Positions 11,358-50,808 of a stretch of 64,000 bases of DNA are shown here, piece by piece. The position numbers were made by a program, and so were the translations under genes. Numbering within the stretch: the first letter of the stretch is position 1; each line of letters opens with the position of its first letter. Origin of the DNA: Firmicutes bacterium UBA3546 (GTDB taxonomy: Bacteria > Bacillota > Clostridia > Tissierellales > Proteiniboraceae); assembly GCA_002376545.1 (NCBI GenBank), contig DFOH01000041.1, positions 48,250 to 112,249 on the forward strand, given 5' to 3'. Under the pieces are notes generated by a model. It saw nothing but the letters and a program-made list of their open reading frames with translations, had not been told where the DNA came from and searched no databases.

Positions 11358-11410
11358 CTAGTTAAACAGCCTTAGCTTGATGTATCAAGCTAAGGCTGTT
11401 TAAGGTTTTT
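11358..11410 (+). terminator. Orphan strong hairpin with T-run (plus-strand orientation)
   Basis: aaacagccttagcttgat-gt-atcaagctaaggctgttt followed by aaggttttt. No ORF of 60 aa or more lies upstream on the plus strand. Confidence 0.45.
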
Positions 11411-11444
11411 CACTATAAACTTAACAAGGTGCTATTAAAGTTTT

Positions 11445-11507
11445 TTATTCTACTCCTGCTATTAATAATATTATTGAGCATAGGCTTGCAAAATTGCTTA
11501 TTTTCTA
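11445..11507 (-). pseudogene. Decayed 3' remnant of a pmbA/tldE paralog
   Basis: Minus-strand translation ...*KISNFASLCSIILLIAGVE* matches the C-terminus KINNFSGPKSIKLLNISIAGVE* of the intact PmbA at 26097. The 22 nt ttttttattctactcctgctat are identical in both places, with stop codons just upstream. Confidence 0.55.
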
Positions 11508-11603: not shown

Positions 11604-12863
11604 CTATTTTAAATATTCTACTATTCTGATAAGAGTATCATCACTACCAAAGCCGCCTGCTTTTGTAATTATTTGAACATTATACTTATTGCTAAGTATA
11701 TCTGATGCAACTACCCCTAAAAAAATCTCATTTTGTGGTACAATTCCATTGCACCCTAGTGCTTTTATAATTCCAAAGGCAGTATCTCCTCCAAAAATTA
11801 CTAAATGCCCTATAGTTGTCTTATCTAATACCTGTTTTACCATTTTTCCAATGTTTTCTGCTATCAATAAATGTGCTTTTTTGGGATTTATATTTAACTT
11901 TACTGAATAATCTAGACATTCTTTCACCTGACTTCTATCCTCAGCTGTCTTTATAATAATCTTGTCACCTTTATTAATCTTAGAGACAATATCATGTATG
12001 AAAGCCTCTCCCTCACTACTATTAAAATAGTCATGAGCTAGCAACTGTTTTGGTGTAAGAATTATACTTTTATATCCAAGCTTTTCTGAATACTTTACTT
12101 GGTTGATTGATGCTGTATTGACACTACCTGAGATGATTAAGCTACTCAATTCATATTGCTTAGTTTCTGCTTTGTCTCTTTTTAGCTCTAAAATTTCAGT
12201 CAATATTCCCGCAAACCCTGCACATCCCGCGGTTAACTTTAGCTTTTTTCTTTCCTTAAGCACTTTTCCTATTTTCATTAAATCCAAATCATTCTGAGCA
12301 TCAAAAACATAAATTGCCTGTTTATCTTCCTTTAGCTGGAATGTCTCGTAATCCTTTTGCTTTATTGTCACTACTTCAATATTTGACTGGGAATTAATAA
12401 TCTCCGCAATACTACTGTGTTTAGTAGGTTCAAAAGGGTCATTTGCATATGCAGTTTTATTTAATGGTTTTCCATCTACATAATGCTGACCATTTATTGT
12501 AGTTCGATTTGCCTTTGGAAATGATGGTATGAAGAATAATTCATTGCTGTTACATGCCTTGATTGCGCCAGCAAGCTCACTTCCTATATTACCTCTCAAG
12601 GTTGAATCTGTTTTCTTATAAATATACTTAATTCCATATTCCTTCGCTTTGTCTACAACCTTTTTAACTTTTAAAAATGCCTCAAAAGAATTTATATGCC
12701 TAGTTTCAATATCTAAAACAACTACTTGGATTTTTTCATCTAATAATTCATATTTAATATTTTCATCAGTACTTACAATCGTCGGGATATCTTTTTTTGA
12801 GAATTGAACCCCAGTGTCAAGCGCCCCAGTAAAATCATCTGCTATTACAAGTAGCTTAACCAT
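11604..12863 (-). CDS. DUF1537 four-carbon acid-sugar kinase family protein (OtnK/DtnK-like)
   Basis: N-terminus MVKLLVIADDFTGALDTGVQF is typical of the YgbK/OtnK family. RBS GAGGTGA. It is the last gene of the operon. Confidence 0.7.
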   Translation of the reverse strand: MVKLLVIADDFTGALDTGVQFSKKDIPTIVSTDENIKYELLDEKIQVVVLDIETRHINSFEAFLKVKKVVDKAKEYGIKYIYKKTDSTLRGNIGSELAGAIKACNSNELFFIPSFPKANRTTINGQHYVDGKPLNKTAYANDPFEPTKHSSIAEIINSQSNIEVVTIKQKDYETFQLKEDKQAIYVFDAQNDLDLMKIGKVLKERKKLKLTAGCAGFAGILTEILELKRDKAETKQYELSSLIISGSVNTASINQVKYSEKLGYKSIILTPKQLLAHDYFNSSEGEAFIHDIVSKINKGDKIIIKTAEDRSQVKECLDYSVKLNINPKKAHLLIAENIGKMVKQVLDKTTIGHLVIFGGDTAFGIIKALGCNGIVPQNEIFLGVVASDILSNKYNVQIITKAGGFGSDDTLIRIVEYLK

Positions 12864-12923
12864 TATGTCACCTCTCTTACATTGATAGGCACTCTTAATC
12901 TAAATCCACCATCATAAAAATTA

Positions 12924-13958
12924 TTAATCTACATCAATTATTATCTTTCCAGCATCGCCACTTTGCGCAAGCTGAATTGCCTCTTCTACTTTTTCTAATT
13001 TGAAGTGATGAGTAATTACTTTCTCTGGAGTCACCATTCCTGACCTAATAATCTCGTCAGCAGCATACCAGCTTTTATACATATGTCTTCCTGTAATTCC
13101 GTAAATTCTTGCTTCTTTATATATCACATCATTTACTAAATCCAATGAAGTCTTTTTTGAATGCAGTCCAATTAAAGACACCCATCCGCCTTTTCTCAAA
13201 GCTTTCAATCCAGAGTTTAAGGCAGCTTCACTTCCTGTAAGCTCTATTATGGCTCCTGCCCCCAATCCATTTGTTTTGCTAAGTACAATTTCCTCTAAAT
13301 TGTCAGTATTAGTATTTATTGTGTAGTCCGCACCCATTTGTCTAGCCATTCTTAGTCTAGGTTCATTTCTGTCAACAGCAAATACCTGTGAGGCTCCAAA
13401 TGCTTTTGCTACTTCTGTAGCAAAACATCCTATTGGTCCACATCCTAAGACTACTACTGGAACACCAGCCACTTGCTCAGCTTGTAAAGCATGTACCGCA
13501 ATGCCAAAAGGCTCATATATGGCTCCTATTGACGGATCTGTTGATTCGTCCAATTTCCATGCGCATGCTTCTGGCAGTACTGTATATTCAGCAAAAGCCC
13601 CATCAGTATGGACACCTATTATCTTCATATTATTGCATACATGCTGATTACCTGTTCTACATTGAAAGCAAATACCACAAGGTATGTGAGTCTCTGCACA
13701 CACCAAATCTCCTACTTTGAAGTTCTTAACTAAATTACCTACTTCAACAACTTCTCCACAATACTCATGCCCTATTACCATTGGATTCTTAGCTCCTACA
13801 TTCTCGCACCATTCATTCCAATGATAAAGATGTATATCAGTACCACAAATAGCAGCAGACTTAACTTTTACTAACATTTCATCAGGCTTAATTTTGGGTA
13901 CATCTATGTCTTTAAGAACTACTCCCTTACTTCTGTTAACTTTCATAATGGCTTTCAT
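12924..13958 (-). CDS. Zn-dependent medium-chain alcohol dehydrogenase, L-threonine 3-dehydrogenase-like
   Basis: MKAIMKV...ICGTDIHLY..GHEYCGEV..GCGPIG motifs. Start is preceded by GGAGGG; the track's upstream extension overlaps the pdxA stop. Confidence 0.7.
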   Translation of the reverse strand: MKAIMKVNRSKGVVLKDIDVPKIKPDEMLVKVKSAAICGTDIHLYHWNEWCENVGAKNPMVIGHEYCGEVVEVGNLVKNFKVGDLVCAETHIPCGICFQCRTGNQHVCNNMKIIGVHTDGAFAEYTVLPEACAWKLDESTDPSIGAIYEPFGIAVHALQAEQVAGVPVVVLGCGPIGCFATEVAKAFGASQVFAVDRNEPRLRMARQMGADYTINTNTDNLEEIVLSKTNGLGAGAIIELTGSEAALNSGLKALRKGGWVSLIGLHSKKTSLDLVNDVIYKEARIYGITGRHMYKSWYAADEIIRSGMVTPEKVITHHFKLEKVEEAIQLAQSGDAGKIIIDVD

Positions 13959-13974
13959 GTAATTGCCCTCCATT

Positions 13975-15012
13975 CTACCTTCTATTTTTAGCAAGCTTAG
14001 CTCCATAATCAATTGCATTTAACATGCTTTCGGCATTTGCTGTTCCTTTACCAGCTTTTCCAAAAGCAGTACCATGGTCTACAGATGTTCTTATAATTGG
14101 TAATCCAAGAGTTATATTGACTCCACTTACGGATTCCCACTTATTTTTTTCTTCGTCCCAATTAAATCCTACCACTTTGAGAGGTATGTGTCCTTGATCA
14201 TGATACATAGCAACGACGATATCATATTGTCCTCCCTTTGCTTTAGAAAATAATGTATCTGGAGGAACAGGTCCATCTACATTCATTCCTAGCCTAGTTG
14301 CTTCATTTATAGCTGGTTTTATCTCCTTTTCTTCTTCCCAACCAAACATTCCACTTTCCCCTGCATGAGGATTTAATCCCGCAACCCCTATTCTTGGATT
14401 ATCTATTCCAAATCCTCTCATTGTATCATAAGCTAATTCAATAACCTCTAATACTCTATCCTTTTTAACATTATCACATGCTTGTCTTAGTGAAACATGA
14501 GTAGATACATGAACAACTCTCAAATTTCCATCGGCAAGCATCATGGTATAATTCTTTGTTTTTGTGAAATTAGCATATATTTCAGTATGTCCATTATAAT
14601 GATACCCTGCTAAATTTAGTGCTTCCTTATTTAAAGGTCCAGTTACTGTCCCATCTACTTCTCCCGCCATTGCAAGGTCTATTGCCTTTTTTACAGCATC
14701 AAATGCTGCTTTCCCAGACATAGCTTGTACCTCTCCATGCTTTAATTGGTTAATATCCACATCCTTCAAATCTATTACATCGATTGCTCCATGTTCAAAT
14801 TTAGCATCTCTTACTTCATAGATAGGTCTAACTTTTAAGTTTAATCTGGCTATATGATTCACCGCATGCTCAATAATTTTTGCATCTCCTATTATCAGAG
14901 GTCTGCAAATATTATATATGCTTTCTTCTCCCAATGCTTTTACAGCTATCTCAGGCCCTATTCCTGAAGGATCTCCCATTGTAATTGCAAGTATAGGCAG
15001 TTGAACTTTCAT
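13975..15012 (-). CDS. pdxA: PdxA-family NAD-dependent 4-hydroxythreonate-4-phosphate dehydrogenase-like oxidative decarboxylase
   Basis: MKVQLPILAITMGDPSGIGPEI...AMYHDQGHIPLK with conserved His ligands. RBS GGAGGG. Confidence 0.75.
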   Translation of the reverse strand: MKVQLPILAITMGDPSGIGPEIAVKALGEESIYNICRPLIIGDAKIIEHAVNHIARLNLKVRPIYEVRDAKFEHGAIDVIDLKDVDINQLKHGEVQAMSGKAAFDAVKKAIDLAMAGEVDGTVTGPLNKEALNLAGYHYNGHTEIYANFTKTKNYTMMLADGNLRVVHVSTHVSLRQACDNVKKDRVLEVIELAYDTMRGFGIDNPRIGVAGLNPHAGESGMFGWEEEKEIKPAINEATRLGMNVDGPVPPDTLFSKAKGGQYDIVVAMYHDQGHIPLKVVGFNWDEEKNKWESVSGVNITLGLPIIRTSVDHGTAFGKAGKGTANAESMLNAIDYGAKLAKNRR

Positions 15013-15013
15013 G

Positions 15014-15679
15014 CTAACCCTCCAATTCTAATACATGTTTTAATTGTTCTACCCCAGAACGAGGGCTAGTAAGCACAGGTATTTTTATATGATTAAGATA
15101 TGGTAACAATATAGCCATGCTACCTTGAGCAAGTACGATAACATCGCTATTTTTAGCTACCTCTTCTATAGCCCCTAGTACCATTCTATTATGCTTCTCT
15201 CTATCTCCTTCTTCCATAAGCACTCTTATGGCACCATCTACTAGTACTTTATTAATGTCAACTTTTTTGTCTAATTCAGCAGCAGTCCTTTCAATAAGCC
15301 TCACACTAGGGTCAAGTGTAGTAGCTACTGTGCCAATTACAGATATTCTTCTCCCAATTTTCACTGCTTCTCTAGCCATAGGTTCATCAATCTTCAAATA
15401 TGGAATCGTCAACATATTTCTAGCTACATCTACAGCTTCTCCTACAGATGAGCATTGATTTAAAATAATGTGTGCACCCATTTCCTCAGCTTGTATAGCA
15501 TATATACATATTCTTTTAATAACAGACTCTGTAAGCCCTCCAGACCTCATAACATCTTCTAAGAGGCTGTCATCTATAATATTTATCATTTCAACTTCAG
15601 GTACTATTTCTTTAAATAATTCTTTTAAATCCATTACAGTAAGTAAATTTGTATGAATTACAGCAACCTTTTTTTTCAA
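15014..15679 (-). CDS. Asp/Glu/hydantoin racemase superfamily protein
   Basis: About 220 aa (KKVAVIHT...LNQCSSVG...VLAQGSMA). Probable TTG start after AAAGGTG. The longer track ORF overlaps the upstream gene. Confidence 0.5.
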   Translation of the reverse strand: MKKKVAVIHTNLLTVMDLKELFKEIVPEVEMINIIDDSLLEDVMRSGGLTESVIKRICIYAIQAEEMGAHIILNQCSSVGEAVDVARNMLTIPYLKIDEPMAREAVKIGRRISVIGTVATTLDPSVRLIERTAAELDKKVDINKVLVDGAIRVLMEEGDREKHNRMVLGAIEEVAKNSDVIVLAQGSMAILLPYLNHIKIPVLTSPRSGVEQLKHVLELEG

Positions 15680-15713
15680 TTTTCTCACACCTTTCTTTAA
15701 ACTTGTTTTGGAA

Positions 15714-16808
15714 CTAATAAGAGCCTCTCGCTGCAATCTCCCAGATACCTTCAATTTTTCCTTTCCTGACTACATAAATTTGATTATATAAGTTAGTAGT
15801 AGTGCAGCAATGGCTTGGCACTAGATGTACCTTATCACCTACTGCTAGTCCTATATATGGAGTTAATGCACGACATTTTGCATGCTCCTCAGCTAGCTTT
15901 ACTACCTCAACATTTTCTACTCCTTTGATTTTTGGAACCTCTCTCTCAGGTGATATGGATTTCATTCCTGTATTTAAAATAACTGTTTCATCATCAGGAG
16001 TGCTTACTACAGAAGCAAGAACTGTAAGAGATTGTTCAAAAGGTAATCCTACCTTTTCATAAGTTAAGTCCATGAAAATATATGAACCAGCCTGAATCTC
16101 CGTAATTCCTGGATATTCTCCAGCTATATCAAAGGTTCCGCTTCCAGCTCCACTTACTATTTCTACAGGCACTCCAGCCTTTCTTATAGCCTCAGCAGTA
16201 TCAACAAGATACTTATTAGCTTTTCTGCCTGTCTCTTGTCTTTCATGTCTATCTTTTATGAATACTGCATGTCCTTCATAGCCCATGATTCCAAGGAAAT
16301 TTATATTTTTTAGAGAATTTGCAAGCTTTGCTAGCTCAACTGCTGCTTCAGTGCTTCTTGCGCCACATCTTCCCATTCCTACATCAATCTCAATTATTAC
16401 TCCCAAGTCAACCCCAATTTCAAAGGATGCTTCTGATAATTTCTTTAAATTTTCAGTATCATCTACTGCAACCATCATATTAGCATATCGCGCTAAGCTA
16501 ACTAGACGTCTTATTTTATCTTCGTCCTTCACTTCATTGGCAATTAATATATTATCAAGACCTGAATTTACCATAACTTCTGCTTCACTTATGGTTGCAC
16601 AGCAGAGTCCTATTGCTCCTGATTTTATTTGTTGATGTGCTATCATAGGTGTTTTATGCGTTTTCGTGTGTGGTCTTAAACTTACTCCTTGTTTTAATAA
16701 ATATTGCATCATCTTCTTCATATTACTTTCAAATATATCAGCATCCAACACTAATGCTGGAGTTGGTATCAAATCTTGCGATAATCCTATAAGATAAGAA
16801 TTGTTCAT
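15714..16808 (-). CDS. DSD1-like fold-type III PLP enzyme (D-serine dehydratase-like / D-threonine aldolase family)
   Basis: RPHTKTHKTP PLP-lysine motif with an alanine-racemase-N-like domain. Start MNNSYL is preceded by GGAGGT. Confidence 0.65.
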   Translation of the reverse strand: MNNSYLIGLSQDLIPTPALVLDADIFESNMKKMMQYLLKQGVSLRPHTKTHKTPMIAHQQIKSGAIGLCCATISEAEVMVNSGLDNILIANEVKDEDKIRRLVSLARYANMMVAVDDTENLKKLSEASFEIGVDLGVIIEIDVGMGRCGARSTEAAVELAKLANSLKNINFLGIMGYEGHAVFIKDRHERQETGRKANKYLVDTAEAIRKAGVPVEIVSGAGSGTFDIAGEYPGITEIQAGSYIFMDLTYEKVGLPFEQSLTVLASVVSTPDDETVILNTGMKSISPEREVPKIKGVENVEVVKLAEEHAKCRALTPYIGLAVGDKVHLVPSHCCTTTNLYNQIYVVRKGKIEGIWEIAARGSY

Positions 16809-16826
16809 TTTTATATACCTCCGCAT

Positions 16827-18248
16827 TTATATTCTAGGACGTCCTCCATAGAACCATCCTGATTCAAGGTCTACCACCTTTGCCTTAAGTCCACGCTTCT
16901 TAACAGCATTAACTCCTAGTTCAGTTGTTAATACTGTAGTGCCTTTTCCTAACACCACTCCATCTAACATTATGATATTTCCTGAACATACTGCACCGTA
17001 TGCTCTTCCGCTTGTTCCATCAAGTATTGTAATATCTGCATCTGCACCAACTCCAAGATGTCCTTTATCTTTAAGACCAAAAATTTTAGCAGGATTAATA
17101 CTTGTCTTTGTTACAAACTCTTCCCATGTAAGCATATCCATTCTTACAAGAGCTGTTCCTTTCTCTACAATGAAATTTCTTGGAATAGAGCCACCATCAG
17201 TTGATATTGCATCTACTATGAATCTGCCAGATTTAGCTTTTTGTGTTGCTAGCAAAAATCTAGTCGATGCAGGCGTAACAGGAAAAGTGCATGTTACATC
17301 TGTTCCTTCCTTATCAAAATATTCTATCCCTTCCTTACCTGTAAGTCTTAAATTGTCGTTTCCAACATGACATACCACCGACGCCCATCCATCTAGTATA
17401 GCCTGTCTAAGACCTTTCTCTGTTCCTTCATATCCTCCCATGCTTAAAGAATTTTTAACTCCATTAGATTCAGGCATTCCATCAGAACACTTAGCTGGTG
17501 TTCCACTAAATACAGAAAGATATGATTCACTGAAAATATTTGGATTATCCTCTAAAATTCTCAGTGCCTCCAATGTTTCTTCAATGGGATCACCTAATAC
17601 TTGTCCACGACAATAAGAATTTACATGTACTAGGTCCATAGAAAATCCCTTAGCTATATCTACAGCATCCTTAAAGCTATTAAAATTCCCAACTCCATTT
17701 TTTGTAGTTCCTACATGAAAGGCTACATATGCTTTTTTATGATTTGCAACTTCTACTACTCTTTGTGTTGCCTCTGGAGTCATAGGATAGTGACCACCTA
17801 ATAGCTTCATACCAATTGCTCCTTCATCCAAGCTTTTATCAATAAGCTCACTTATCTCTGTTTTTGTTGGAGCTATTCCACTAATGTTCCAACCTGGTCT
17901 TATCATCTGTAAACAAATCATATTCATTCCAGTACCATTATTGATAGAAAAATCATAGAATTCGTGAAGTGGACCTCCACAATCCATTGCAGTAACTGTT
18001 CCTGCTCTTGCTAGCATACTCATAGCAGCTTGTCCGCCTTTGCCCGTAAAGCCAGTATGTACATGCATGTCTATGATTCCTGGAACAATAGTCTTTCCCT
18101 TAGCATCGAGTACTTTTATGCCCTTATTAGTATTTATTTCTTCAGCAACCTCAACCACTTTGCCTCCATCAATCCCAATATCTCTTTGACCATGTATTTT
18201 ATTTTCCGGGTCTATAACAGTTCCATTTTTTATTATTAAATCGAACAT
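16827..18248 (-). CDS. Metal-dependent amidohydrolase family protein
   Basis: N-terminal ...GIIDMHVHTGF (HxH metal motif), 473 aa. RBS AGGAGG. Confidence 0.65.
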   Translation of the reverse strand: MFDLIIKNGTVIDPENKIHGQRDIGIDGGKVVEVAEEINTNKGIKVLDAKGKTIVPGIIDMHVHTGFTGKGGQAAMSMLARAGTVTAMDCGGPLHEFYDFSINNGTGMNMICLQMIRPGWNISGIAPTKTEISELIDKSLDEGAIGMKLLGGHYPMTPEATQRVVEVANHKKAYVAFHVGTTKNGVGNFNSFKDAVDIAKGFSMDLVHVNSYCRGQVLGDPIEETLEALRILEDNPNIFSESYLSVFSGTPAKCSDGMPESNGVKNSLSMGGYEGTEKGLRQAILDGWASVVCHVGNDNLRLTGKEGIEYFDKEGTDVTCTFPVTPASTRFLLATQKAKSGRFIVDAISTDGGSIPRNFIVEKGTALVRMDMLTWEEFVTKTSINPAKIFGLKDKGHLGVGADADITILDGTSGRAYGAVCSGNIIMLDGVVLGKGTTVLTTELGVNAVKKRGLKAKVVDLESGWFYGGRPRI

Positions 18249-18276
18249 TTAGTAACCTCCTTTCATCGCCAATTCC

Positions 18277-19404
18277 TCAATCCAAGTCTCCATTAAAAGC
18301 TTTAACATAGATTGATTTTATGCTATCCTTACTTAAATCAATTGGATTATTTTTAAGAAGTCTTTCTTGCATCATGGCCTCTTCTAAAACAATGTCAATA
18401 TCCTCCTCTGGAATATTAGCGTCTTTTAGTCTGTAAGGAACATTTATCTTTCTAAATCCATCTATAATAGGATTTATTAAACCTCTTATATCAGAAACCT
18501 CAATAGCTTTTTTCAGAGTATTTACTTTTTCAACTTTTAAAGAATCAAGATACAACATAACATAGGGATACAGCATTGCTACTCCTTGGCTATGTGAAAT
18601 TCCGTATTTAGCCAATGGATAGGCAAGAGCATGTACACTGCACGTACCTGCATTTGTTAATGCTGCACCGCCAAGTAATGAACCTAATGCCATATCTTGT
18701 CTAGCTACTAGATTATCGCCATTATCAATAGCTGCATGTAGAGATTTATATATAAGTTTGGTACCTTTAATTGCCAATTCATCTGACCACAAGGAGCCAT
18801 TCTTAGATAAAAAGGATTCTACACAATGTGCTAATGCATCTATCCCTGTCAATGCAGTAAGTTTTGGTGGAAGAGTAATCATTAGTTCTGGGTCGACTAT
18901 AGCTATTTCTGGTATCATATGTCTGCTTACTACTGCTTTTTTATTTTTTTCTTTATCGAGGAAAATAGCATTTGGAGTAGCTTCAGAACCGGTGCCACTT
19001 GTTGTAGGTATCATAATCATTGGGATACCATGTTTGGAAAAGCTAATATTACTTAAATCGTTTATTTTTGTACATCCATTTCCCTTTACCCAAGCTACTA
19101 ATTTTGCAGTATCTAATACACTTCCACCACCAAGTCCTATACATATGTCTGCGTCGAATCCTTCGGCTAATTTTAAGCATTCATTAACAACCTCAATATC
19201 TGGTTCTCCTTTAAATGAGGAAAAAGTCAATACTTCTAGCCCTATAGATGTTAATTTAGTTTCTAAGTGTGCTCTAAAAGGTCTATCACTTAAAAGCAGT
19301 ACTCTTTCAGCATTCATTTGCTCGATTTCCGTACAAACTTGATTATACGCTCCTGCTCCAAAAATTACTCTGCCTGGAGTATTTAAGCTTATTAAATTAT
19401 CCAC
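18277..19404 (-). CDS. Iron-containing (group III) alcohol dehydrogenase
   Basis: GGGSVLDTAK motif and conserved His residues. GTG start after GGGGGT. Confidence 0.7.
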   Translation of the reverse strand: MDNLISLNTPGRVIFGAGAYNQVCTEIEQMNAERVLLLSDRPFRAHLETKLTSIGLEVLTFSSFKGEPDIEVVNECLKLAEGFDADICIGLGGGSVLDTAKLVAWVKGNGCTKINDLSNISFSKHGIPMIMIPTTSGTGSEATPNAIFLDKEKNKKAVVSRHMIPEIAIVDPELMITLPPKLTALTGIDALAHCVESFLSKNGSLWSDELAIKGTKLIYKSLHAAIDNGDNLVARQDMALGSLLGGAALTNAGTCSVHALAYPLAKYGISHSQGVAMLYPYVMLYLDSLKVEKVNTLKKAIEVSDIRGLINPIIDGFRKINVPYRLKDANIPEEDIDIVLEEAMMQERLLKNNPIDLSKDSIKSIYVKAFNGDLD

Positions 19405-19461
19405 AACTTTACCCCCTTGTTTTTTATGTTATTATCATATGTATTATTTCTCTACTTTCTA

Positions 19462-20961
19462 TTAGCTAAGTGGTTCAGCTTTTTTCTTATTCGCATTAAT
19501 TTGATTCTTAATAAGCGGCCAAACTATAGTTAATACTGCTATAAGTAAAAAAGCTAATGAAACAGGACGTGTTAGAAATGGTAAAAAGCTTCCATCTGAA
19601 TAAGTTAAACCACGTCTTAAATTGACTTCTACCATAGGTCCTAATATAAAACCTAAAATCATAGGGCTTATGGAGATTTTTGCAATTTCAAGTATTATAC
19701 CTACTGCTGCGAATATAAGCATAATCCAGATATTAAATGTAGAATTGTTACTTGCAAAGGCTCCAATGAAGCTCATGACCATTAACGCAGGGTATAGATA
19801 ATGATATGGCACCTTTAATAGCCTCGGGAATAATCTCATACCCCCAAATTGAAGTATTAATGTTAAAATAGCAGATAATGCTGCTGCTGCAAATACTATA
19901 TAAACTACTGATGGATTGTTTACAAATAGTAGTGGTCCTGGTTGAATACCATGTATCATTAGTCCCCCAAGAAGAATTGCAGTTACACTGTCTCCAGGTA
20001 TCCCCATAGTAACCATAGGTATTATTGCACCACCAACTGATGCGTTATTTGATACCTCGCTTGCCCAAACTCCATCTACGCATCCCTTTCCAAATTCTTC
20101 TGGACTCTTAGATGCTTGTTTTGCCTGACCATATGCAACCATGTTTGATAGTCCACTTCCCATGCCAGGTAAAAAACCAATCCATAATCCAATCATAAAT
20201 GAACGAATAATATTCCAGCCATTACTTATGACTTCTTTCATTGTAATTCCAAAGCCAGAAACTTTTAATGATACATCGGGTTGCTGCTGTTGGCCTGTAC
20301 CAAAATCCTTTACAATTTGTTTTATGGCAAATATACCAAGTATCATGGCCAATATGTCTATACCACCACTAAGCATAACATTTCCAAATATAAATCTTGG
20401 ACCTCCGTCAATAGGAGCCATCCCAACTGAGCTTAGTCCTATACCAATAAAAGCACCTGCAAGTCCTCGGAACATATCTCCTTTAGATAAAACAGCTACA
20501 AGCACTAAGGCGCAAGTACATAGAGAAAAGAATTCCCATGGTCCAAGCTTTAATGCAACTTCTGCGATAAATGGACTTAATATTGCTGCAATAATAACAC
20601 TTAAAAATGTACCTATAAATGATGCTACTATACCTGTTCCAAGTGCTTTAACTGCCTGACCTTTTTTAGTCATTGGGTAAGCATCAAAGCATGTAGCAAT
20701 TGATGATGGAGTTCCTGGAATACCAATTAGTGTAGCTGAAATAAATCCACCTGACACTCCTCCTATCCAAATACCTACTAAAAGAGCCATACCCATTTCT
20801 GGAGACATTCCAAATGTTAAAGGTAATAACAAGGAAACCCCTGTAACTGCTGTCAAGCCAGGTATTGCCCCAAATATTATTCCTACTATAGTACCAAATA
20901 GAAGCAATAAAAAGGTTACTGGCTGGAGTAACTGTCCTATACTTGAAATAATATAATCCAT
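19462..20961 (-). CDS. tctA: Tripartite tricarboxylate transporter large permease
   Basis: 499-aa polytopic membrane protein with TctA-family sequence, downstream of tctC and tctB. Confidence 0.75.
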   Translation of the reverse strand: MDYIISSIGQLLQPVTFLLLLFGTIVGIIFGAIPGLTAVTGVSLLLPLTFGMSPEMGMALLVGIWIGGVSGGFISATLIGIPGTPSSIATCFDAYPMTKKGQAVKALGTGIVASFIGTFLSVIIAAILSPFIAEVALKLGPWEFFSLCTCALVLVAVLSKGDMFRGLAGAFIGIGLSSVGMAPIDGGPRFIFGNVMLSGGIDILAMILGIFAIKQIVKDFGTGQQQQPDVSLKVSGFGITMKEVISNGWNIIRSFMIGLWIGFLPGMGSGLSNMVAYGQAKQASKSPEEFGKGCVDGVWASEVSNNASVGGAIIPMVTMGIPGDSVTAILLGGLMIHGIQPGPLLFVNNPSVVYIVFAAAALSAILTLILQFGGMRLFPRLLKVPYHYLYPALMVMSFIGAFASNNSTFNIWIMLIFAAVGIILEIAKISISPMILGFILGPMVEVNLRRGLTYSDGSFLPFLTRPVSLAFLLIAVLTIVWPLIKNQINANKKKAEPLS

Positions 20962-20981
20962 TTTTTCCCCTCCTTAAGTCT

Positions 20982-21428
20982 TTAGAATAATTTTCCTGAT
21001 GGTAACATCACCAGTAACACCTTTTCGAAAATTAAATATACCGAGCCTGTAATACATAATGAAAATATTATTGCTGTCTTATAAATCTTCATATTTCCAT
21101 TCATGACAATTATTGAAGCAAATACTGCAATAGGTGTAGCAATTAAGAACCCAAGTGTTACAAGTCCTATAGCGTATAATAATATTACACCTGACATTAT
21201 ACACAGGCGTTTCCAGCCCTCTGGAGTTAAATATACCTTTGCCTTCTCTGCTGTCTTTTCAAGCATTAACCCTATTCCACATATTATCAACCCAATACCA
21301 GAGATATATGGAAATAATCTAGGCCCTACATCATTTTCAAGATTAGGGTTAGGAATCTGGCTAGCTAGTATTGTAATTATAATTCCTATGATTAATAACA
21401 TGATTCCTGTTTTTTTGTTACTGCTCAT
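20982..21428 (-). CDS. tctB: Tripartite tricarboxylate transporter small permease
   Basis: About 148-aa 4-TM protein between tctC and tctA. Start MSSNKK is preceded by GGAGTGA. Confidence 0.6.
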   Translation of the reverse strand: MSSNKKTGIMLLIIGIIITILASQIPNPNLENDVGPRLFPYISGIGLIICGIGLMLEKTAEKAKVYLTPEGWKRLCIMSGVILLYAIGLVTLGFLIATPIAVFASIIVMNGNMKIYKTAIIFSLCITGSVYLIFEKVLLVMLPSGKLF

Positions 21429-21509
21429 ATTATCACTCCATTTCATTTATTATTTATATATTAGAATCAACTCTTAATAGAGTTGATTCTAATATATTTA
21501 ATAGCACTG

Positions 21510-22523
21510 CTATTTCTTTAATCCTAAATTTTCTGCAACAGCTTCTATAGAATTAAATTCTGCTTCTAAATATGCTTCAGTTTCTTCTAAATCTCTATAT
21601 TTATAGCTTTGTCCAATATTGTTAAGTTTGTCCATAAAATCTTTATCAGCTTCCATTTCTGCAAAAAGTCCATTTATTTTTTTAGCTATTTCATCAGGTA
21701 GTCCTTTTGGAGCATACATAGCATGCATAGTCGGGAGAATTACGTTATAGCCTTGCTCGACTGCCGTTGGAAAATCAGGTGCTAATATATCTCTTTCTTC
21801 TGAAGCTACTGCGAGAACCTTTACTTTATTAGCTTCTACATATTGTGAAGCAGCTCCTACTGTTGCTTGGATAAGATCTAGATGACCGCCTTGAAGTGAA
21901 GCTAACTTTTCTGCTTCTCCACCTGAGTCAACCATTTTAAATTCTACGCCTGCCTCATTCATCAATATACCTGCGATAAATTGACTAACTCCACCATACT
22001 GAACACCAAATATATATTTGTTAGGATTTTGTTTTGCATCTTGAACTAGTTCTTCTAAAGTATTCCATGGAGCATCTGCTCTCACTGATATTGTTTGACT
22101 TACATGTGGCATTGTAGCAATTGGTCTAAAATCTTTGTATGAATAAGCATATGTTCCACCGTGATAATTGCATTGTAAAAGTGTGTGATGGAAAAGAATT
22201 GTGTAGCCATCTGGTTCAGCATTTCTTACGGTTTCTGCTCCTACTGAACCTCCACCACCATCTTGGTTAACCACAACTACAGGTTGTCCTAATTTTCCTT
22301 GCATATATTGTGCAACTAAACGAGCAGCAGCATCTGTAGCCCCCCCTGCTTTTGTAACGCATATAAGCTGAATTGGCTTTGTAGGATAATTAACTTCAGA
22401 ATTTGAAGCATTATCATTGACTCCTTCAGAATCATTGTTTGTAACAGGCTGATTTGATGAGCATGCTGTAATTGAAATACCTAATAATGCAATTGCTAAA
22501 AATAAAGCTAATTTCTTTTTCAT
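21510..22523 (-). CDS. tctC: TctC/Bug-family tripartite transporter substrate-binding lipoprotein
   Basis: Lipoprotein signal ...LLGISITACSS and Bug-family length. Confidence 0.7.
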   Translation of the reverse strand: MKKKLALFLAIALLGISITACSSNQPVTNNDSEGVNDNASNSEVNYPTKPIQLICVTKAGGATDAAARLVAQYMQGKLGQPVVVVNQDGGGGSVGAETVRNAEPDGYTILFHHTLLQCNYHGGTYAYSYKDFRPIATMPHVSQTISVRADAPWNTLEELVQDAKQNPNKYIFGVQYGGVSQFIAGILMNEAGVEFKMVDSGGEAEKLASLQGGHLDLIQATVGAASQYVEANKVKVLAVASEERDILAPDFPTAVEQGYNVILPTMHAMYAPKGLPDEIAKKINGLFAEMEADKDFMDKLNNIGQSYKYRDLEETEAYLEAEFNSIEAVAENLGLKK

Positions 22524-22618
22524 TCTTTAACCCCCCATTTTTTATATAAAATTTAAACAAAAGAAAACTATTAGAGAAAATTAAATATCCATACCTCCTT
22601 TTCGTTTGATAATAACAT

Positions 22619-23671
22619 TTATCTAGAATAAACAGAGCACCTATTAAGTGTCTCAGTATTCACTAGTTTAGAAGCTATGTCTATAGCTTTTTCAAGAACT
22701 TTTGTGTCACCTGTTTTTTTTGCAATCCTATTGATTGTAGATTCATGACTGACTGCTAATCCAATCATTGAGCCTCCTAAAGCTATTTCTATTTCATTAA
22801 TTGAGTTCCACCTATTACTTTTATCATCAAACTCGAAGCCAATAGCTTCCATCTGAATATTGCTCCTTTCATGATACATATCCACTATTGCATCATATTC
22901 TCCTGATGCAGCTTTTAAATAGATACTATCTGGTGAAATAGGCCCATATGCAAGAATTCCTTCTCTATAGGATGCTTCAATGGCACTTAATATTTCATCA
23001 CTGATATTAGTGTCCTTATATTCTCCAGAATAAAATATATCTGCTACAGCGACTCTAGGTGCATCTATATTCATTTTTTTTAAGATTTCATTTGTAAGCT
23101 TAATCATTTCATGTATTCGATTTTGAGTTATATTTTTAAATACAGAATCACTAAAGCTCTCAAAATAAACATATGCAATTCTAAGAGAACCTCTTATTAT
23201 CATTACAGAATAAACATCTGACTCTTCATCGTTCAGGAAAACCTTTTCAATTCCTCTATGAAAACTACATAACAATTTATTATTATAATTATTACTTGCA
23301 GGTCCAAGAATAAATGCATCAAGGCTTTTATTAGCACATAATTCAATAGCCTTTCTGCCATAAGTTAAACTCATCTCGTCAGAACTCGTATTATCATCAT
23401 TATTAAAATAGTCCTTTGAAGAATCCATGTTTATATCTATTAGATTAAGTACTCCTTCTTTAAAACACGCTTCAGAAGGCTCCTTAATTGTATTCAATAT
23501 CAAAGATGAGCCAGTAAAGTTCAATGCATTTATAACTATATCTAAGCTTCCTATAACTACGAATCCTAAATCCATGTAAAGAGATGCTTTTTCCATAGCT
23601 TTAACTACTATCTGTGCACCAGCTCCCAGAGAATCTCCTATTGTAATTCCAATTATTTTTCTGCCCACCAA
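22619..23671 (-). CDS. Divergent PdxA-family paralog lacking canonical metal-binding histidines
   Basis: GITIGDSLGAGAQI aligns with PdxA GDPSGIGPEI, and DMYHERSNIQME aligns with AMYHDQGHIPLK. Two of the three His-ligand positions are replaced. Probable TTG start 6 nt after AAGGAGTG. It is the first gene after the sigma-54 promoter. Confidence 0.6.
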   Translation of the reverse strand: MVGRKIIGITIGDSLGAGAQIVVKAMEKASLYMDLGFVVIGSLDIVINALNFTGSSLILNTIKEPSEACFKEGVLNLIDINMDSSKDYFNNDDNTSSDEMSLTYGRKAIELCANKSLDAFILGPASNNYNNKLLCSFHRGIEKVFLNDEESDVYSVMIIRGSLRIAYVYFESFSDSVFKNITQNRIHEMIKLTNEILKKMNIDAPRVAVADIFYSGEYKDTNISDEILSAIEASYREGILAYGPISPDSIYLKAASGEYDAIVDMYHERSNIQMEAIGFEFDDKSNRWNSINEIEIALGGSMIGLAVSHESTINRIAKKTGDTKVLEKAIDIASKLVNTETLNRCSVYSR

Positions 23672-23728
23672 TGTAAGCACTCCTTTTTTAATCAAATTAG
23701 TTAATGTATAGAGTTACTTATTTTATAT

Positions 23729-23744
23729 GCGAAAACTATGCCAA
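23729..23744 (-). promoter_or_regulatory. Candidate sigma-54 (-24/-12) promoter
   Basis: Minus-strand TTGGCATAGTTTTCGC has GG-N10-GC spacing. TGGCAT matches TGGCAC and TTCGC matches TTGCA. It lies about 45 nt upstream of the first operon gene and downstream of the enhancer-binding-protein gene. Confidence 0.55.
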
Positions 23745-23823
23745 AATTAAATAACCGTAAAAAAGTCATGTAATCGCTATATTTCAACAAAAAATATCTG
23801 ATAGCATGTGGAATATCCTTCCC

Positions 23824-23847
23824 ATGCGTTCCATTATTGAAACGCAT
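23824..23847. promoter_or_regulatory. Inverted repeat, candidate enhancer (UAS) site
   Basis: ATGCGTT-N10-AACGCAT about 90 bp upstream of the sigma-54 promoter. Confidence 0.35.
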
Positions 23848-23904
23848 TTATTAAAAATTTAAATAAATGCTTAAAATTCAGTTTTTATCAAGTATACAAA
23901 CAAA

Positions 23905-23938
23905 GAAACATAAGTTCCATTAATGGAACTTATGTTTC
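23905..23938. terminator. Perfect 17-bp-arm palindrome overlapping the regulator stop codon
   Basis: gaaacataagttccatt|aatggaacttatgtttc followed on the minus strand by tttgtttg. It is either a terminator for the regulator gene or a protein-binding site. Confidence 0.5.
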
Positions 23939-25825
23939 TTTGTTGAAACCATATTTATTCATTTTTCTCCAGAGAGTTGTCCTGCTTATGTTTAACTCCT
24001 TAGCTGTTTTTTTAATACTCCACCCATTATTATCCAATACTTTAAGTATTGCTTTTCTTTCTGCTATATCTAGCGTTGTCACTTCATTTTTACCCTCATC
24101 ATGTACTTCTCTTACTATATGTTTCTCATATAATCCATAAAGATCATTTACAGTAACTATAGCTCCATTTTTTAAAACCACTAATCTTTCGATTACATTC
24201 TCAAGCTCTCTTATATTCCCGGGCCAAGAGTATTTTTTAAGCTCATTTATAGCACTGTTTTCAATACCTACCATTTTACACCCAGTCTTTCTTACTGATT
24301 TATTAATAAATACTTCAATAAGATATGGAATATCTTCAGTTCTTTCCCTTAAAGGAGGTAGATGTAATGATAATACATTAAGACGATAATATAAGTCTTC
24401 TCTAAATTTACCATTATTAACTTCTTCAAGTAAGTTCTTATTTGTTGCAGAAATAATTCTTACATCTAGAGGAATTACTCTATCATCTCCAATTCTACGA
24501 ACTACCTTTTCTTGTAGTACTCTCAATAGTCTCGCCTGTAATTTTAATGGCATCTCTCCAATCTCATCTAAAAACAACGTTCCCTGATGCGCCATTTCAA
24601 ACAAACCTGGTTTACCCCCTTTTTTTGCCCCTGTGAAAGCGCCCTCATTGTATCCAAAAAGTTCACTCTCCAAGAGGGATTCGGGTACTGCTGCGCAGTT
24701 AATTGCTACAAAAGGTTCCTCTCTCCTTAAACTATAGTTATGTATACTTTGAGCTAATACCTCTTTACCTGTTCCTGTTTCTCCGCTTATTAAAATTGTA
24801 GAATTAACAATAGCAAACTTTTTTGCATTTTCGCTTAATTCCTTCATCTTTTCATTAACAGTTTTCATATCATCAAATGTATATCTGGCAGAGTTCCCTT
24901 TTAAATACAACTCCCTTCGAACCTTTTCTTCTGCTTTCTGTATTTTATGGGCTTCCTGAATTGTTATTATTACTCCAACTAATTTTTTCTTACTAATAAC
25001 AGGAATTATATCTTTTACAATTAGACCTGACGATACGTAACTTACTTCTCCAAGTAATGGTTTGCTAGTCTTAAAAATATCATCAGTTAATAATCCTGGC
25101 AACATATCATTTGCATAATGTCCTATTATCTCCTCAGCATTTGTATTGAGAATTCTTTCGGCAATAGGATTTATGTATTTAACTTTTCCTAATGCATCTA
25201 GTGTAATGATTCCGTCATGTACAAAGTTGATTAAAGTCCTAATTTCCTCTGTTCTCTCCCTTTCTCTGTTTACCATTTCTATAGTGTTATATGCTTCTCT
25301 TATAGCTTGAATAATAGCTTCTTTACCCGAATGAACTAAAACAGTAAAAAAACCATTTTGAGAAGCTTTTCTTACAGCAATAGTGTCTCCAACAACCATT
25401 TTTATCTCTTCATCGTTCATTCTTATAATTACATCATCCACATCTTTATCAGAACCTATCAAAAATTCTTTTAAATCTATCTTCAAAATATCTCTTAAGG
25501 TTCCTACACCATAAATAATGTTCTTATAGCCAACTACACCAATAGAAGCACTAAATCTCATAGCATTATTAATTGCTCTCATTAAGTCATATCCAGTAAC
25601 AGCAATTTCTATTACAGGAACCTTGACAGCTTCTCTAATTGCTATGGCGGTACCTCCGCGGCTTATTATTGCTTGTGCTCCATTGTCTATGGCATCTAGA
25701 GCTTCTTTTACCCCTTCTTCCATATCTCCTATTCTTATATCCAATTGCTCATTAAATTCATTACATACTTCTTCCCCTAATTCTGCCAACTTGGGGAACG
25801 GTGCAATTAATGCTATCTTACCCAC
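23930..25825 (-). CDS. Sigma-54-dependent transcriptional activator (PrpR-N-like sensory domain, PAS, AAA+, Fis HTH)
   Basis: ESELFGYNEGAFTGAKKGG (GAFTGA sigma-54 contact motif), Walker A GETGTGKE and a C-terminal HTH. GTG start after GGGGGA. Confidence 0.8.
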   Translation of the reverse strand: MGKIALIAPFPKLAELGEEVCNEFNEQLDIRIGDMEEGVKEALDAIDNGAQAIISRGGTAIAIREAVKVPVIEIAVTGYDLMRAINNAMRFSASIGVVGYKNIIYGVGTLRDILKIDLKEFLIGSDKDVDDVIIRMNDEEIKMVVGDTIAVRKASQNGFFTVLVHSGKEAIIQAIREAYNTIEMVNRERERTEEIRTLINFVHDGIITLDALGKVKYINPIAERILNTNAEEIIGHYANDMLPGLLTDDIFKTSKPLLGEVSYVSSGLIVKDIIPVISKKKLVGVIITIQEAHKIQKAEEKVRRELYLKGNSARYTFDDMKTVNEKMKELSENAKKFAIVNSTILISGETGTGKEVLAQSIHNYSLRREEPFVAINCAAVPESLLESELFGYNEGAFTGAKKGGKPGLFEMAHQGTLFLDEIGEMPLKLQARLLRVLQEKVVRRIGDDRVIPLDVRIISATNKNLLEEVNNGKFREDLYYRLNVLSLHLPPLRERTEDIPYLIEVFINKSVRKTGCKMVGIENSAINELKKYSWPGNIRELENVIERLVVLKNGAIVTVNDLYGLYEKHIVREVHDEGKNEVTTLDIAERKAILKVLDNNGWSIKKTAKELNISRTTLWRKMNKYGFNKET

Positions 25826-26046
25826 AAAAATCCCCCACTCTTTTTTACAGATAGTATTTAAATGTAATTATATATTTTCGTCAAATTAATACAATATTCT
25901 TTCATCTCAAAATCTATTAAGTATTATTATATTGAATAATTCTTATGAGGTCAAAGACACTTTCTGTATTTCTATGATATTTGAAATAATCTCTTTTCAT
26001 CTATAAATCTTAATCCTACTTTAACGAAATCATAAAAAACAATAAA

Positions 26047-26090
26047 AAACACCGTTTAATCAACTTATTACTCTTGATTAGACGGTGTTC
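26047..26090 (-). terminator. Rho-independent terminator of the peptide/TldDE operon
   Basis: aacaccgtttaatcaa...ttgattagacggtgtt hairpin followed on the minus strand by TTTTTTATTGTTTT. Confidence 0.7.
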
Positions 26091-26096
26091 AATTTT

Positions 26097-50696: not shown

Positions 50697-50763
50697 AAGT
50701 ATCCACCCCTATCTAGAATAAGTCGAGCTGTTCCCATTCTGATTGCAATTTTTAGTTATTGCA

Positions 50764-50789: not shown

Positions 50790-50808
50790 CGCAAGGATGC
50801 TCATGCTT

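Follow-up and report, generated by a model that had tools for sequence, protein, structure and literature searches.

What would a bacterium do with an operon that places a four-carbon acid-sugar kinase and a PdxA2-type dehydrogenase behind a carboxylate importer, an amidohydrolase and an aldolase-like pyridoxal 5'-phosphate (PLP) enzyme? The question is raised by eleven minus-strand genes at 11604-23671 in a 64-kb stretch of Firmicutes bacterium UBA3546 (contig DFOH01000041.1, positions 48,250 to 112,249), referred to below as the window; coordinates are those of the full stretch, and the loci compared with it are numbered L001-L175. We believe that the cluster, as judged from its sequence, is a mosaic of two modules, each of which recurs on its own elsewhere: module 1 (TctCBA, the amidohydrolase and the PLP enzyme) and module 2 (the DUF1537 kinase, the PdxA2-type enzyme and dehydrogenases). 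Tentatively, and with confidence that stops short of even, we propose that the first feeds the second, so that an N-acyl 2-amino-2-deoxy-hexonate would yield glycine and a four-carbon aldehyde, the aldehyde a tetronate, and the tetronate dihydroxyacetone phosphate (DHAP).

The region between 11604 and 25825 contains twelve minus-strand open reading frames, namely an activator gene and the eleven genes of the operon. The proteins were assigned to families with Pfam and NCBIfam profiles, which recovered every family named in the initial annotation. In the order of reading on the minus strand the genes are as follows.

23930-25825, minus strand: sigma-54 enhancer-binding activator (PrpR_N, weak PAS, Sigma54_activat, AAA_lid_14 and HTH_8, a Fis-type helix-turn-helix; GAFTGA motif)
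22619-23671, minus strand: degenerate PdxA-fold protein of 350 aa, likely start TTG at 23671 after AGGAG
21510-22523, minus strand: TctC-family solute-binding lipoprotein (PF03401)
20982-21446, minus strand: TctB small membrane subunit (PF07331)
19462-20961, minus strand: TctA large membrane subunit (PF01970)
18277-19404, minus strand: iron-containing alcohol dehydrogenase (Fe-ADH) of the lactaldehyde-reductase type (Pfam/NCBIfam)
16827-18248, minus strand: binuclear-metal amidohydrolase of 473 aa (Pfam/NCBIfam; family-invariant residues)
15714-16808, minus strand: fold-type III PLP enzyme of the D-threonine-aldolase clade (Ala_racemase_N/D-ser_dehydrat)
15014-15754, minus strand: Asp/Glu/hydantoin-racemase-family protein (Asp_Glu_race), real start probably near 15670
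13975-15012, minus strand: PdxA2-type dehydrogenase with intact motifs (Pfam/NCBIfam)
12924-13958, minus strand: Tdh-like zinc alcohol dehydrogenase (Zn-ADH) of the L-threonine 3-dehydrogenase clade (NCBIfam)
11604-12863, minus strand: DUF1537 four-carbon acid-sugar kinase (SBD_N and NBD_C domains)

The intergenic gaps in the operon are 0-95 nt, with the gene starts to which ribosome-binding sites and independent gene calls on identical contigs point. Terminator-like motifs across the region number 7 against 6.5 expected from shuffling, i.e., there is no excess, and the two minus-strand matches both fall inside coding sequence; the tight spacing without internal terminators, as originally described, thus stands. 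An Rfam scan found no riboswitch or other RNA element within the cluster. The genes for TctC, TctB and TctA are adjacent and each of the three families exceeds its gathering score, so that the tripartite tricarboxylate transporter (TTT) is complete. One further feature lies between the operon and the downstream GGDEF gene and probably marks the 3' end of the operon transcript.

11362-11403, no strand assigned: 19-bp perfect hairpin, with a T run only on the plus strand

The window has a G+C content of about 34% and a GC skew that is strongly negative throughout. In a look-up of clusters at 90% identity, all proteins looked up were singletons and had no names.

Is the cluster one unit? Its recurrence in synteny in a second species suggests that it is. 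The second locus, L089, belongs to a metagenome bin of an uncultured relative and has the order activator, 245-aa PdxA remnant, TctC, TctB, TctA, Fe-ADH, amidohydrolase, PLP enzyme, PdxA, DUF1537, aldehyde:ferredoxin oxidoreductase (AFOR) and racemase-like protein. The identity between window and L089 is 83% for TctA, 79% for the amidohydrolase, 78% for the intact PdxA, 77% for the PLP enzyme, 74% for TctC, 68% for TctB, 65% for the Fe-ADH, 63% for the DUF1537 kinase and 45% for the racemase-like protein; for the degenerate PdxA it is 38%, across 159 residues only. The activators are 66% identical over the C-terminal 246 aa present in L089. The Tdh-like Zn-ADH, whose clade had been correctly recognised, is missing from L089, where AFOR is present instead. 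The flanks are unlike: the L089 cluster is followed by pcrA, ligA and gatCAB, while the unit of the window lies between the GGDEF gene and PmbA/TldD-like genes.

How is such a unit switched on? We presume, with the support of the sequence features given here, that the operon is transcribed from a sigma-54 promoter and activated by the adjacent PrpR_N-type protein through two predicted upstream sites. The relevant features are listed below.

26044-26089, minus strand: terminator-like hairpin AACACCGT...ACGGTGTT followed by a T run, 3' of the PmbA/TldD-like gene (sequence inspection)
25926-25954, minus strand: sigma-70-like promoter TTGACC-17-TATAAT, 11/12 matches, the top-scoring site of the scanned region
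23903-23940, minus strand: 38-nt perfect palindrome overlapping the activator stop codon
23914-23929, minus strand: putative upstream site 1, GTTCCATTAATGGAAC, at the centre of the 38-nt palindrome
23828-23843, minus strand: putative upstream site 2, palindrome GTTTCAATAATGGAAC (minus-strand reading), about 95 nt upstream of the -24 element
23728-23743, minus strand: sigma-54 promoter TGGCAT-N5-TCGCA, TGGCATAGTTTTCGCA (-24/-12 pattern search)

The pattern TGGCAYN5TYGCW has a single match in the 64 kb, TGGCATAGTTTTCGCA (0.23 expected anywhere), and that match is located in the 234-nt gap before the first operon gene; the equivalent site of L089 is a perfect -24/-12 box, TGGCAT-N5-TTGCA (TGGCATTAAAATTGCA). 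The 16-bp palindrome GTTNCAN4TGNAAC occurs exactly twice in the 64 kb, both times between activator and operon (0.03 expected), and L089 likewise carries it exactly twice, only between its activator and its operon. The AAA+ domain of the activator (PF00158) scores 239 bits, and “EGAFTGAKKGG” is readable in its translation. Considering that the promoter and the palindromes are kept between species whose core proteins are 63-83% identical, this conservation is the strongest non-experimental evidence for control by sigma-54 and the activator. Sigma-54 dependence had been proposed from the window; the sole -24/-12 site, the GAFTGA activator and the conservation of promoter and palindromes in the second species bear it out. 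No rpoN/sigL gene was noticed among the annotated genes of the window, which is itself just part of the genome.

The position of the regulator directly upstream was also correctly given, but the gene is not part of the operon: it appears to be a separate transcription unit with its own predicted promoter (25926-25954) and a terminator-like hairpin upstream (26044-26089), which isolates it from the PmbA/TldD-like gene. The palindrome at 23903-23940 could be a terminator hairpin, an activator-binding site, or both; DNA that combined the two roles may permit autoregulation of the activator. The contigs of independent short-read assemblies of the same organism break between the activator and the first operon gene (Logan assemblies L174/L001 from SRR1749832 and L175/L002 from ERR12068941), and the palindromes in this gap may be the cause of the breaks.

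Activators of the PrpR/PrdR type from Clostridia (PMC6615313) share with the present one the PrpR_N domain, an AAA+ domain with GAFTGA, HTH_8 and a catabolic operon as the target. The window protein differs in that it stays below both NCBIfam equivalog cut-offs (430/795 bits for PrdR and 427/499 bits for PrpR). The survey of Clostridiales sigma-54 regulons in the same paper does not mention PdxA, DUF1537 or Tct targets.

What, then, does the first module do? The amidohydrolase was found together with the same PLP subfamily in 6/6 contexts at no less than 56% identity (L084-L089), the two genes adjoining each other or standing across Tct genes. Their partners are TctA or TctCBA in L086, L088 and L089 (TctA is 78% identical to the L086 protein and TctC 51% identical to that of L088); in L084, L085 and L087 they are Opp-type ABC transporters and several MLE-subgroup enolase-superfamily proteins similar to Ala-Glu epimerase/DgcA. 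In L088 the next gene after the module encodes a DgaE-family enzyme (D-glucosaminate-6-phosphate ammonia-lyase type). In L172, with an amidohydrolase of 51% identity, an alanine racemase adjoins, and RidA and a threonine-aldolase-like gene are near. A genome scan with the amidohydrolase alone gave just chance N-terminal matches and no common context. Solved structures are too distant from TctC for its ligand to be deduced.

The amidohydrolase belongs to a large family without a name or a characterised function (1,827 matches at E<=1e-10; identity of 45-77% among the best 119 homologs listed). The residues H62, H64, K148, H178, H208 and D346 are invariant across the family, and HxH, Lys148, His178, His208 and Asp346 together read as the carbamyl-lysine binuclear pattern. 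The AlphaFold model has a mean pLDDT of 94.7; its closest structural neighbours are D-hydantoinase and isoaspartyl dipeptidase, and OngB, a deacetylase discussed below, is in the top 3. The enzyme falls outside the D-aminoacylase/OngB group, as its metal site is not the D-aminoacylase one with a bridging Cys and its identity to OngB is about 17%. A role as a D-specific deacylase or dipeptidase would suit these data. We also considered a hydantoinase process, in which a hydantoinase-like enzyme would cooperate with the hydantoin-racemase-like protein; this was rejected because no carbamoylase is encoded.

The PLP enzyme had been called “DSD1-like”. Its fold-type III family is right, but the protein resembles aldolases more closely than DSD1-type dehydratases: it scores 245 bits against the D-threonine aldolase 4v15, 222 against BhcC and 213 against a third, all of them D-threonine or 3-hydroxy-D-aspartate aldolases, and about 105 bits against D-serine and D-threo-3-hydroxyaspartate dehydratases. 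With its best matches (PDB 4v15 and 6qkb) it shares the fold-type III architecture and the PLP-binding lysine (RPHTKTHK aligned with RPHAKAHK, Lys59 in 4v15). It differs from them at the metal site, where the aldolases have His-x-Asp (His347/Asp349 in 4v15) and the window protein reads PSHCCTT, with the His kept and the Asp replaced by Cys; in a score far below the BhcC equivalog cut-off (293/690 bits); and in its constant amidohydrolase partner. The HCC motif is conserved across all amidohydrolase-linked homologs (L084-L089).

Most likely, as far as these sequences allow, module 1 frees a D-configured beta-hydroxy amino acid by hydrolysis of its amide, and the amino acid is then cleaved or deaminated. 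The suggestion of an N-acyl or D-hydroxy-amino-acid substrate, first made from the extra genes of the window, is strengthened by the conserved pair (found in all six contexts) and its company of TctCBA or peptide-type transporters and D-amino-acid enzymes.

The racemase-family protein that follows had been placed in the Asp/Glu-racemase superfamily, and the family holds. However, just one of the two catalytic cysteines of Asp/Glu/hydantoin racemases is present: the first lies in NQCSS, and LAQGSM stands at the second position in the window protein as well as in those of L089 and L126. The L126 homolog is 60% identical and is again encoded near PdxA/DUF1537. A classical two-base racemase is doubtful on this basis, and solved structures are too distant for a ligand to be proposed.

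The second module resembles an established route. DUF1537 kinases together with PdxA2 reportedly catabolise D-threonate and D-erythronate, as described in 2016 by Zhang and co-workers. The likeness consists of a DtnK-like DUF1537 kinase and an intact PdxA2-clade enzyme in one operon, with DHAP as the expected end product. The best NCBIfam model for the kinase is D-threonate kinase, at 243 bits, while the 3-oxo-tetronate kinase model gives 128 bits; solved structures are too distant for ligand assignment. The intact PdxA scores 302 and 289 bits against solved PdxA2/D-threonate-4-phosphate dehydrogenases and about 190 against E. coli PdxA. It has a strong Pfam match (367 bits) and all of the motifs GHTE, STH, NPHAGE, MYHDQGH and RTSVDHGTAF, so that we take the product of 13975-15012 to be a decarboxylating 4-phospho-tetronate (or 4-phosphohydroxythreonine) dehydrogenase. 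The window differs from the known route in several respects. The pair sits inside a TTT/amidohydrolase/PLP-enzyme operon under a sigma-54 activator, a gene of the threonine-dehydrogenase clade stands between its members, a dead PdxA copy leads the operon, and both proteins are under the curated equivalog cut-offs (kinase 243/450 bits, PdxA 349/583 bits for the D-threonate enzyme).

The automatic name of the intact PdxA, 4-hydroxythreonine-4-phosphate dehydrogenase, would make this a locus of vitamin B6 (PLP) biosynthesis or salvage, and the protein does exceed the TIGR00557 pdxA cut-off (353.6 vs 290 bits). We consider such a locus very improbable and have rejected the biosynthetic interpretation: the setting is catabolic, with a TTT importer, an amidohydrolase, an aldolase-like enzyme, alcohol dehydrogenases and an inducible sigma-54 activator; the protein is nearer to the PdxA2/D-threonate-4-phosphate dehydrogenase structures; and its kinase partner is that of the acid-sugar routes.

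The surroundings of related kinases were surveyed in 80 metagenome loci (33-45% identity to the window kinase) and in L089-L091. PdxA adjoins the kinase in 58 of about 80 loci, and in about 30 a PrpR_N-type regulator is near. With the top kinase model and the bit scores against PdxA2, this frequency upholds the assignment of the pair to the D-threonate/D-erythronate type, which had been proposed when the window was first annotated. The order PdxA, Tdh-like Zn-ADH (41-43% identical), DUF1537 is seen again in L099, L103 and L167, and about a dozen of the loci have an Fe-ADH (about 30% identical) next to the kinase and PdxA or between them. PdxA, DUF1537, Zn-ADH and AFOR occur together in L134; AFOR adjoins PdxA-DUF1537 there and in L089, which fits an aldehyde-to-acid step.

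One of these loci, L151 (7975-19476; human-gut metagenome), encodes a PrpR_N-type regulator with a weak sigma-54 domain, DUF1537, an Fe-ADH, an aldolase of the dihydrodipicolinate-synthase family, PdxA, a 2-hydroxyacid dehydrogenase, a tripartite ATP-independent periplasmic (TRAP) transporter and an EF_0837-type amidohydrolase. It appears to be an analogous design built from other families, and another route without an assignment: acid import, deacylation, aldolase cleavage, and passage of the product to kinase and PdxA. A core of regulator, DUF1537, Fe-ADH and PdxA as in L151, the only one of these loci that was annotated in full, was also noticed in L112, L113, L123, L128, L139, L144, L148, L150, L158 and L164. 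Another variant of the kinase/PdxA module, with transketolase, is found at 2325-12260 of L090/L091: a PrpR_N sigma-54 activator, a DUF362/LarA-N-like protein, a Zn-ADH, a split transketolase, AbrB, DUF1537 and PdxA, with a TRAP transporter adjoining.

The Zn-ADH of the window deserves separate mention, as it bears on what the module consumes. It scores 315-318 bits against solved archaeal threonine dehydrogenases and 164 against sorbitol dehydrogenase; among NCBIfam models, NF003808 gives 391 (cut-off 380) and TIGR00692 gives 394 (cut-off 458). No kbl partner is encoded within the cluster. It is tempting to make 4-hydroxythreonine, released from an N-acyl or cyclic derivative, the central metabolite, since the downstream families all act on threonine analogues (D-threonine aldolase, L-threonine 3-dehydrogenase, PdxA). 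The D form would be cleaved in an aldolase-like manner to glycine and glycolaldehyde, the latter being reduced by the Fe-ADH, which is of the lactaldehyde/glycolaldehyde-reductase type, or oxidised by AFOR. The L form, reached through the racemase-family protein, would go to the Tdh-clade enzyme, or to DUF1537 and PdxA in the roles of 4-hydroxy-L-threonine kinase and 4-phosphohydroxythreonine dehydrogenase; Thiaville and co-workers are said to have reported in 2016 that members of DUF1537 are 4-hydroxythreonine kinases. Nevertheless, we find this unlikely. PdxA would form an aminoketone phosphate, for which no catabolic outlet is encoded, and no pdxJ was noticed among the annotated genes of the window; the triad of PdxA, Zn-ADH and DUF1537 in L103 stands with a sugar-type ABC transporter, an LtnD-like dehydrogenase and a short-chain dehydrogenase/reductase, without amino-acid enzymes; the intact PdxA is nearer to D-threonate-4-phosphate dehydrogenases than to biosynthetic PdxA; and we know of no natural source of N-acyl-4-hydroxythreonine.

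Are the two modules metabolically joined? They may be two separate pathways under one promoter, with no metabolite passing between them, which is a real possibility, although not a probable one. Module 1 would then convert an N-acyl-D-serine, an N-acyl-D-threonine or a dipeptide with a D residue to pyruvate, or to glycine and acetaldehyde (the latter for the Fe-ADH), and the Zn-ADH, kinase and PdxA2 would act on D-threonate or D-erythronate from a different imported compound. Each module is indeed found alone, module 1 in L084-L088 and module 2 in about 80 loci, and the neighbours of module 1 elsewhere have a D-amino-acid theme (peptide transporters, MLE-type epimerases, alanine racemase, RidA). 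On the other hand, the two modules have a single transporter between them; L089 retains their combination and gene order together with the promoter and upstream sites; and the regulator is a companion of the module-2 type, yet the module 1 genes come first under its control. With one transporter only, and with the modules and their control region conserved as a set in two species, it is simplest to suppose that the product of module 1 is the substrate of module 2.

The joining could also be effected without an aldehyde-to-acid step, if the imported compound were an amide of a tetronic acid and a D-amino acid (of the N-threonoyl- or N-erythronoyl-D-serine/-D-threonine type). The amidohydrolase would free both halves, the acid passing to kinase and PdxA2 and the D-amino acid to the PLP enzyme, which is consistent with module 1 acting on other acyl groups elsewhere. 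We regard such a substrate as quite unlikely: it would leave the Zn-ADH, AFOR and Fe-ADH without a role, although dehydrogenases and AFOR recur beside kinase and PdxA, and no natural tetronoyl-D-amino-acid amide is known to us.

If module 1 does feed module 2, the aldehyde it releases must serve a four-carbon acid-sugar kinase; it would therefore be a tetrose or a tetruronate, and its parent a 2-amino-2-deoxy-hexonate or a close relative. The proposed sequence of events is the following. TctCBA would import a carboxylate with an amide-linked, D-configured beta-hydroxy-alpha-amino acid, the most economical candidate being an N-acyl 2-amino-2-deoxy-hexonate such as N-acetyl-galactosaminate or N-acetyl-glucosaminate. 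The binuclear amidohydrolase would strip the acyl group, the one-Cys racemase-family protein may alter the configuration at C2, and the D-threonine-aldolase-like PLP enzyme would split the C-alpha/C-beta bond to give glycine and a four-carbon aldehyde. Dehydrogenases (the Tdh-clade zinc enzyme in the window, AFOR in L089, and the Fe-ADH) would convert the aldehyde to D-threonate or D-erythronate, the DUF1537 kinase would form the 4-phosphate, and the intact PdxA2-type enzyme would carry out an oxidative decarboxylation to DHAP and CO2. The product of the leading PdxA-like gene would be a non-catalytic relic or an accessory protein, and the Fe-ADH presumably interconverts an aldehyde and an alcohol.

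Circumstantial support for this pathway may be seen in the DgaE-family neighbour in L088, the structural similarity to OngB, the design of L151 and a selenoprotein B set in the same window. The latter occupies 50700-53831 on the minus strand and comprises GrdX, a GrdE/GrdG-like proprotein and a GrdB/GrdF-like selenoprotein B with an in-frame TGA, after which Rfam places SECIS_4 at 51029-51066, also on the minus strand. The Grd-type proteins score under the substrate-specific cut-offs and are assigned to the B component of a glycine/sarcosine/betaine-type reductase. The set marks the organism as an amino-acid-fermenting anaerobe, and the released glycine could feed the glycine/sarcosine-type reductase encoded there.

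Several points weigh against the pathway so outlined. Its substrate is deduced from gene content. The His-x-Cys of the PLP enzyme is as in Zn-dependent D-serine dehydratases and leaves room for beta-elimination. The metal pattern of the amidohydrolase is that of hydantoinases, dihydroorotases and isoaspartyl dipeptidase, not of D-aminoacylase, so that an N-acetyl compound is no likelier a substrate than a cyclic amide or a dipeptide. In L086 and L088 neither a kinase nor a PdxA accompanies module 1, and in L084, L085 and L087 its companions are peptide transporters and epimerases of the MLE type; being free-standing elsewhere, it need not release a C4 sugar. A Zn-ADH of the true threonine-dehydrogenase clade, as this one appears to be, is no less suited to an amino acid than to a tetrose, and the Fe-ADH has no necessary role in the scheme. 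Finally, the two modules do not occur together in any of the 80 loci that surround related kinases.

Does a known system already account for the cluster? The amino-sugar acid D-glucosaminate is catabolised in Salmonella by the products of the dga operon, which comprises the sigma-54 activator DgaR, the lyase DgaE, a mannose-type phosphotransferase system and 2-keto-3-deoxy-6-phosphogluconate aldolase. The likeness lies in the catabolism of an amino-sugar acid under a sigma-54 enhancer-binding protein, and in the DgaE-family lyase beside a homologous amidohydrolase and TctCBA in L088; the difference is that the mannose-type phosphotransferase system and the aldolase are not in the window cluster. 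In the Ong pathway of Pseudoalteromonas (PMC9537276, PMC12017989), N-acetyl-D-glucosaminate from oxidised chitin is degraded by a D-aminoacylase-like deacetylase and a fold-type III PLP deaminase, in a manner its authors call “akin to D-amino acid catabolism” (PMC9537276). There, too, an amidohydrolase and then a fold-type III PLP enzyme act on an amino-sugar acid, and by analogy Ong may be taken as the closest precedent for the logic of module 1. Unlike the window enzyme with its carbamyl-Lys binuclear pattern, however, OngB is mononuclear and of the D-aminoacylase type. OngC deaminates its substrate to 2-keto-3-deoxygluconate (KDG), which KdgK phosphorylates, whereas the window cluster lacks KdgK and RidA and has DUF1537/PdxA2. 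The Ong genes include an SSS transporter and a repressor, the window cluster TTT and a sigma-54 activator. A KDG route following beta-elimination of glucosaminate was considered for the window and rejected, as PdxA would have no substrate. The defining components of both systems being absent, or tested with a negative outcome, the cluster is a member of neither, although it plausibly works like both up to the PLP step.

Each part of the cluster is known: the sigma-54/PrpR_N activator, the TTT importer, the amidohydrolase superfamily, the fold-type III PLP enzymes and the DUF1537/PdxA2 route. Full-text literature searches found no published match for the gene combination, which agrees with the initial impression that the pathway could not be named; they found no glucosaminate aldolase yielding erythrose, and papers on L-threonate 3-dehydrogenase and LarA do not describe the cluster. 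In searchable papers we did not find described the gene combination, the Cys-variant aldolase-like subfamily that is always paired with an amidohydrolase, or the retained dead PdxA.

What is this dead PdxA? The window had been credited with “two PdxA paralogs”, and two PdxA-fold genes are indeed present; two enzymes are not, since only the product of 13975-15012 is plausibly catalytic. The upstream copy has a weak Pfam match (99 bits), and its motifs have changed from GHTE to GIEK, from STH to YFE, from NPHAGE to IFYSGE and from RTSVDHG to GLAVSHE. Two of the three metal-binding histidines are thereby replaced (by Glu and Tyr) and the phosphate-binding arginine motif is gone, from which we judge the protein to be probably non-catalytic. 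It shares an 11-residue insertion (GFEFDDKSNRWNS vs GFNWDEEKNKWES) with the subfamily of the operon's active PdxA. The L089 ortholog, of 245 aa, has lost about 100 internal residues and keeps the N-terminal domain and the last helix.

A word-index search and then a full HMMER scan of 1.84 billion representatives found no closer relative besides L089, near-full-length alignments being all at 30% identity or below. The 12 top HMMER matches inspected are ordinary PdxA proteins, of which 10 have kept every catalytic motif and most have the insertion, and the L089 ortholog is the sole other similarly degenerate protein among the inspected matches. The idea of a hidden conserved family was rejected on account of these ordinary matches. 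The gene thus looks like a lineage-specific duplicate of the operon's own pdxA that is no longer a PdxA enzyme and is retained at the operon head in two species. Partial motif loss was also noticed in two other public PdxA-family proteins, P0265 and P0270 (GHTE replaced by GPPE in P0270), and degenerate PdxA paralogs may have arisen more than once.

A bolder version of the proposal would combine a new anaerobic route for oxidised amino sugars (TTT import of an N-acyl 2-amino-2-deoxy-aldonate, deacylation by a new amidohydrolase family, retro-aldol cleavage by a PLP enzyme whose metal site contains Cys, glycine to a glycine-type reductase and tetrose through tetronate, DUF1537 and PdxA2 to DHAP) with a dead PdxA that senses a ligand in partnership with the PrpR_N activator or the active PdxA. 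As a whole we hold it to be doubtful.

How did the unit come to lie here? Activator and operon are bracketed by an exact 22-nt direct repeat (29/32 when extended) whose copies are about 14.65 kb apart.

26093-26114, minus strand: left copy, 22 nt, ATAGCAGGAGTAGAATAAAAAA, comprising the last codons and stop of the PmbA/TldD-like gene 26097-27407
11441-11462, minus strand: right copy, 22 nt, 142 nt beyond the kinase stop codon

Such bracketing repeats read as an insertion signature and would make the unit mobile. No integrase gene accompanies the repeat-bracketed unit, and in a search for an island-free strain through the flanking PmbA/TldD-like protein every contig had the activator beside that gene. 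The approximately 85 nt that precede the downstream copy resemble a decayed duplicate of the end of the PmbA/TldD-like gene.

Beyond the island, functions in the salvage of amino acids and peptides are common in general, and neighbouring genes encode a 1030-aa protein whose N-terminal domain is of the GNAT type (29820-32912), a class IV (D-amino-acid/branched-chain) aminotransferase (34243-35169), a gamma-glutamyltranspeptidase (39845-41461) and an ArgE/DapE-type deacylase (43700-44950). Large minus-strand genes at 55030-63063 include a TIGR02679-family protein (55030-56331) and an SbcC/Rad50 Walker-B protein (56291-58948); we take this stretch to resemble an SMC-like defence locus of the Wadjet/JetABCD type (the TIGR02677-02680 set).

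The observation is a lead for pathway discovery and offers no new biological principle. For sigma-54 control in Clostridia-like bacteria it provides a test case whose predicted promoter and activator sites are already defined, and it is an example of an enzyme duplicate that has decayed into a retained non-enzyme; it also advises caution about the automatic labels “PdxA”, “threonine dehydrogenase” and “racemase” in such clusters. If the proposed pathway is true, the amidohydrolase family, which is large (more than 1,800 homologs at E<=1e-10) but uncharacterised, would obtain its first function, and so would its constant partner, the Cys-variant D-threonine-aldolase-like enzyme. It would also add substrates that contain nitrogen to the DUF1537/PdxA2 acid-sugar route of anaerobic Firmicutes, and would tie the breakdown of amino-sugar acids to glycine-based energy metabolism.

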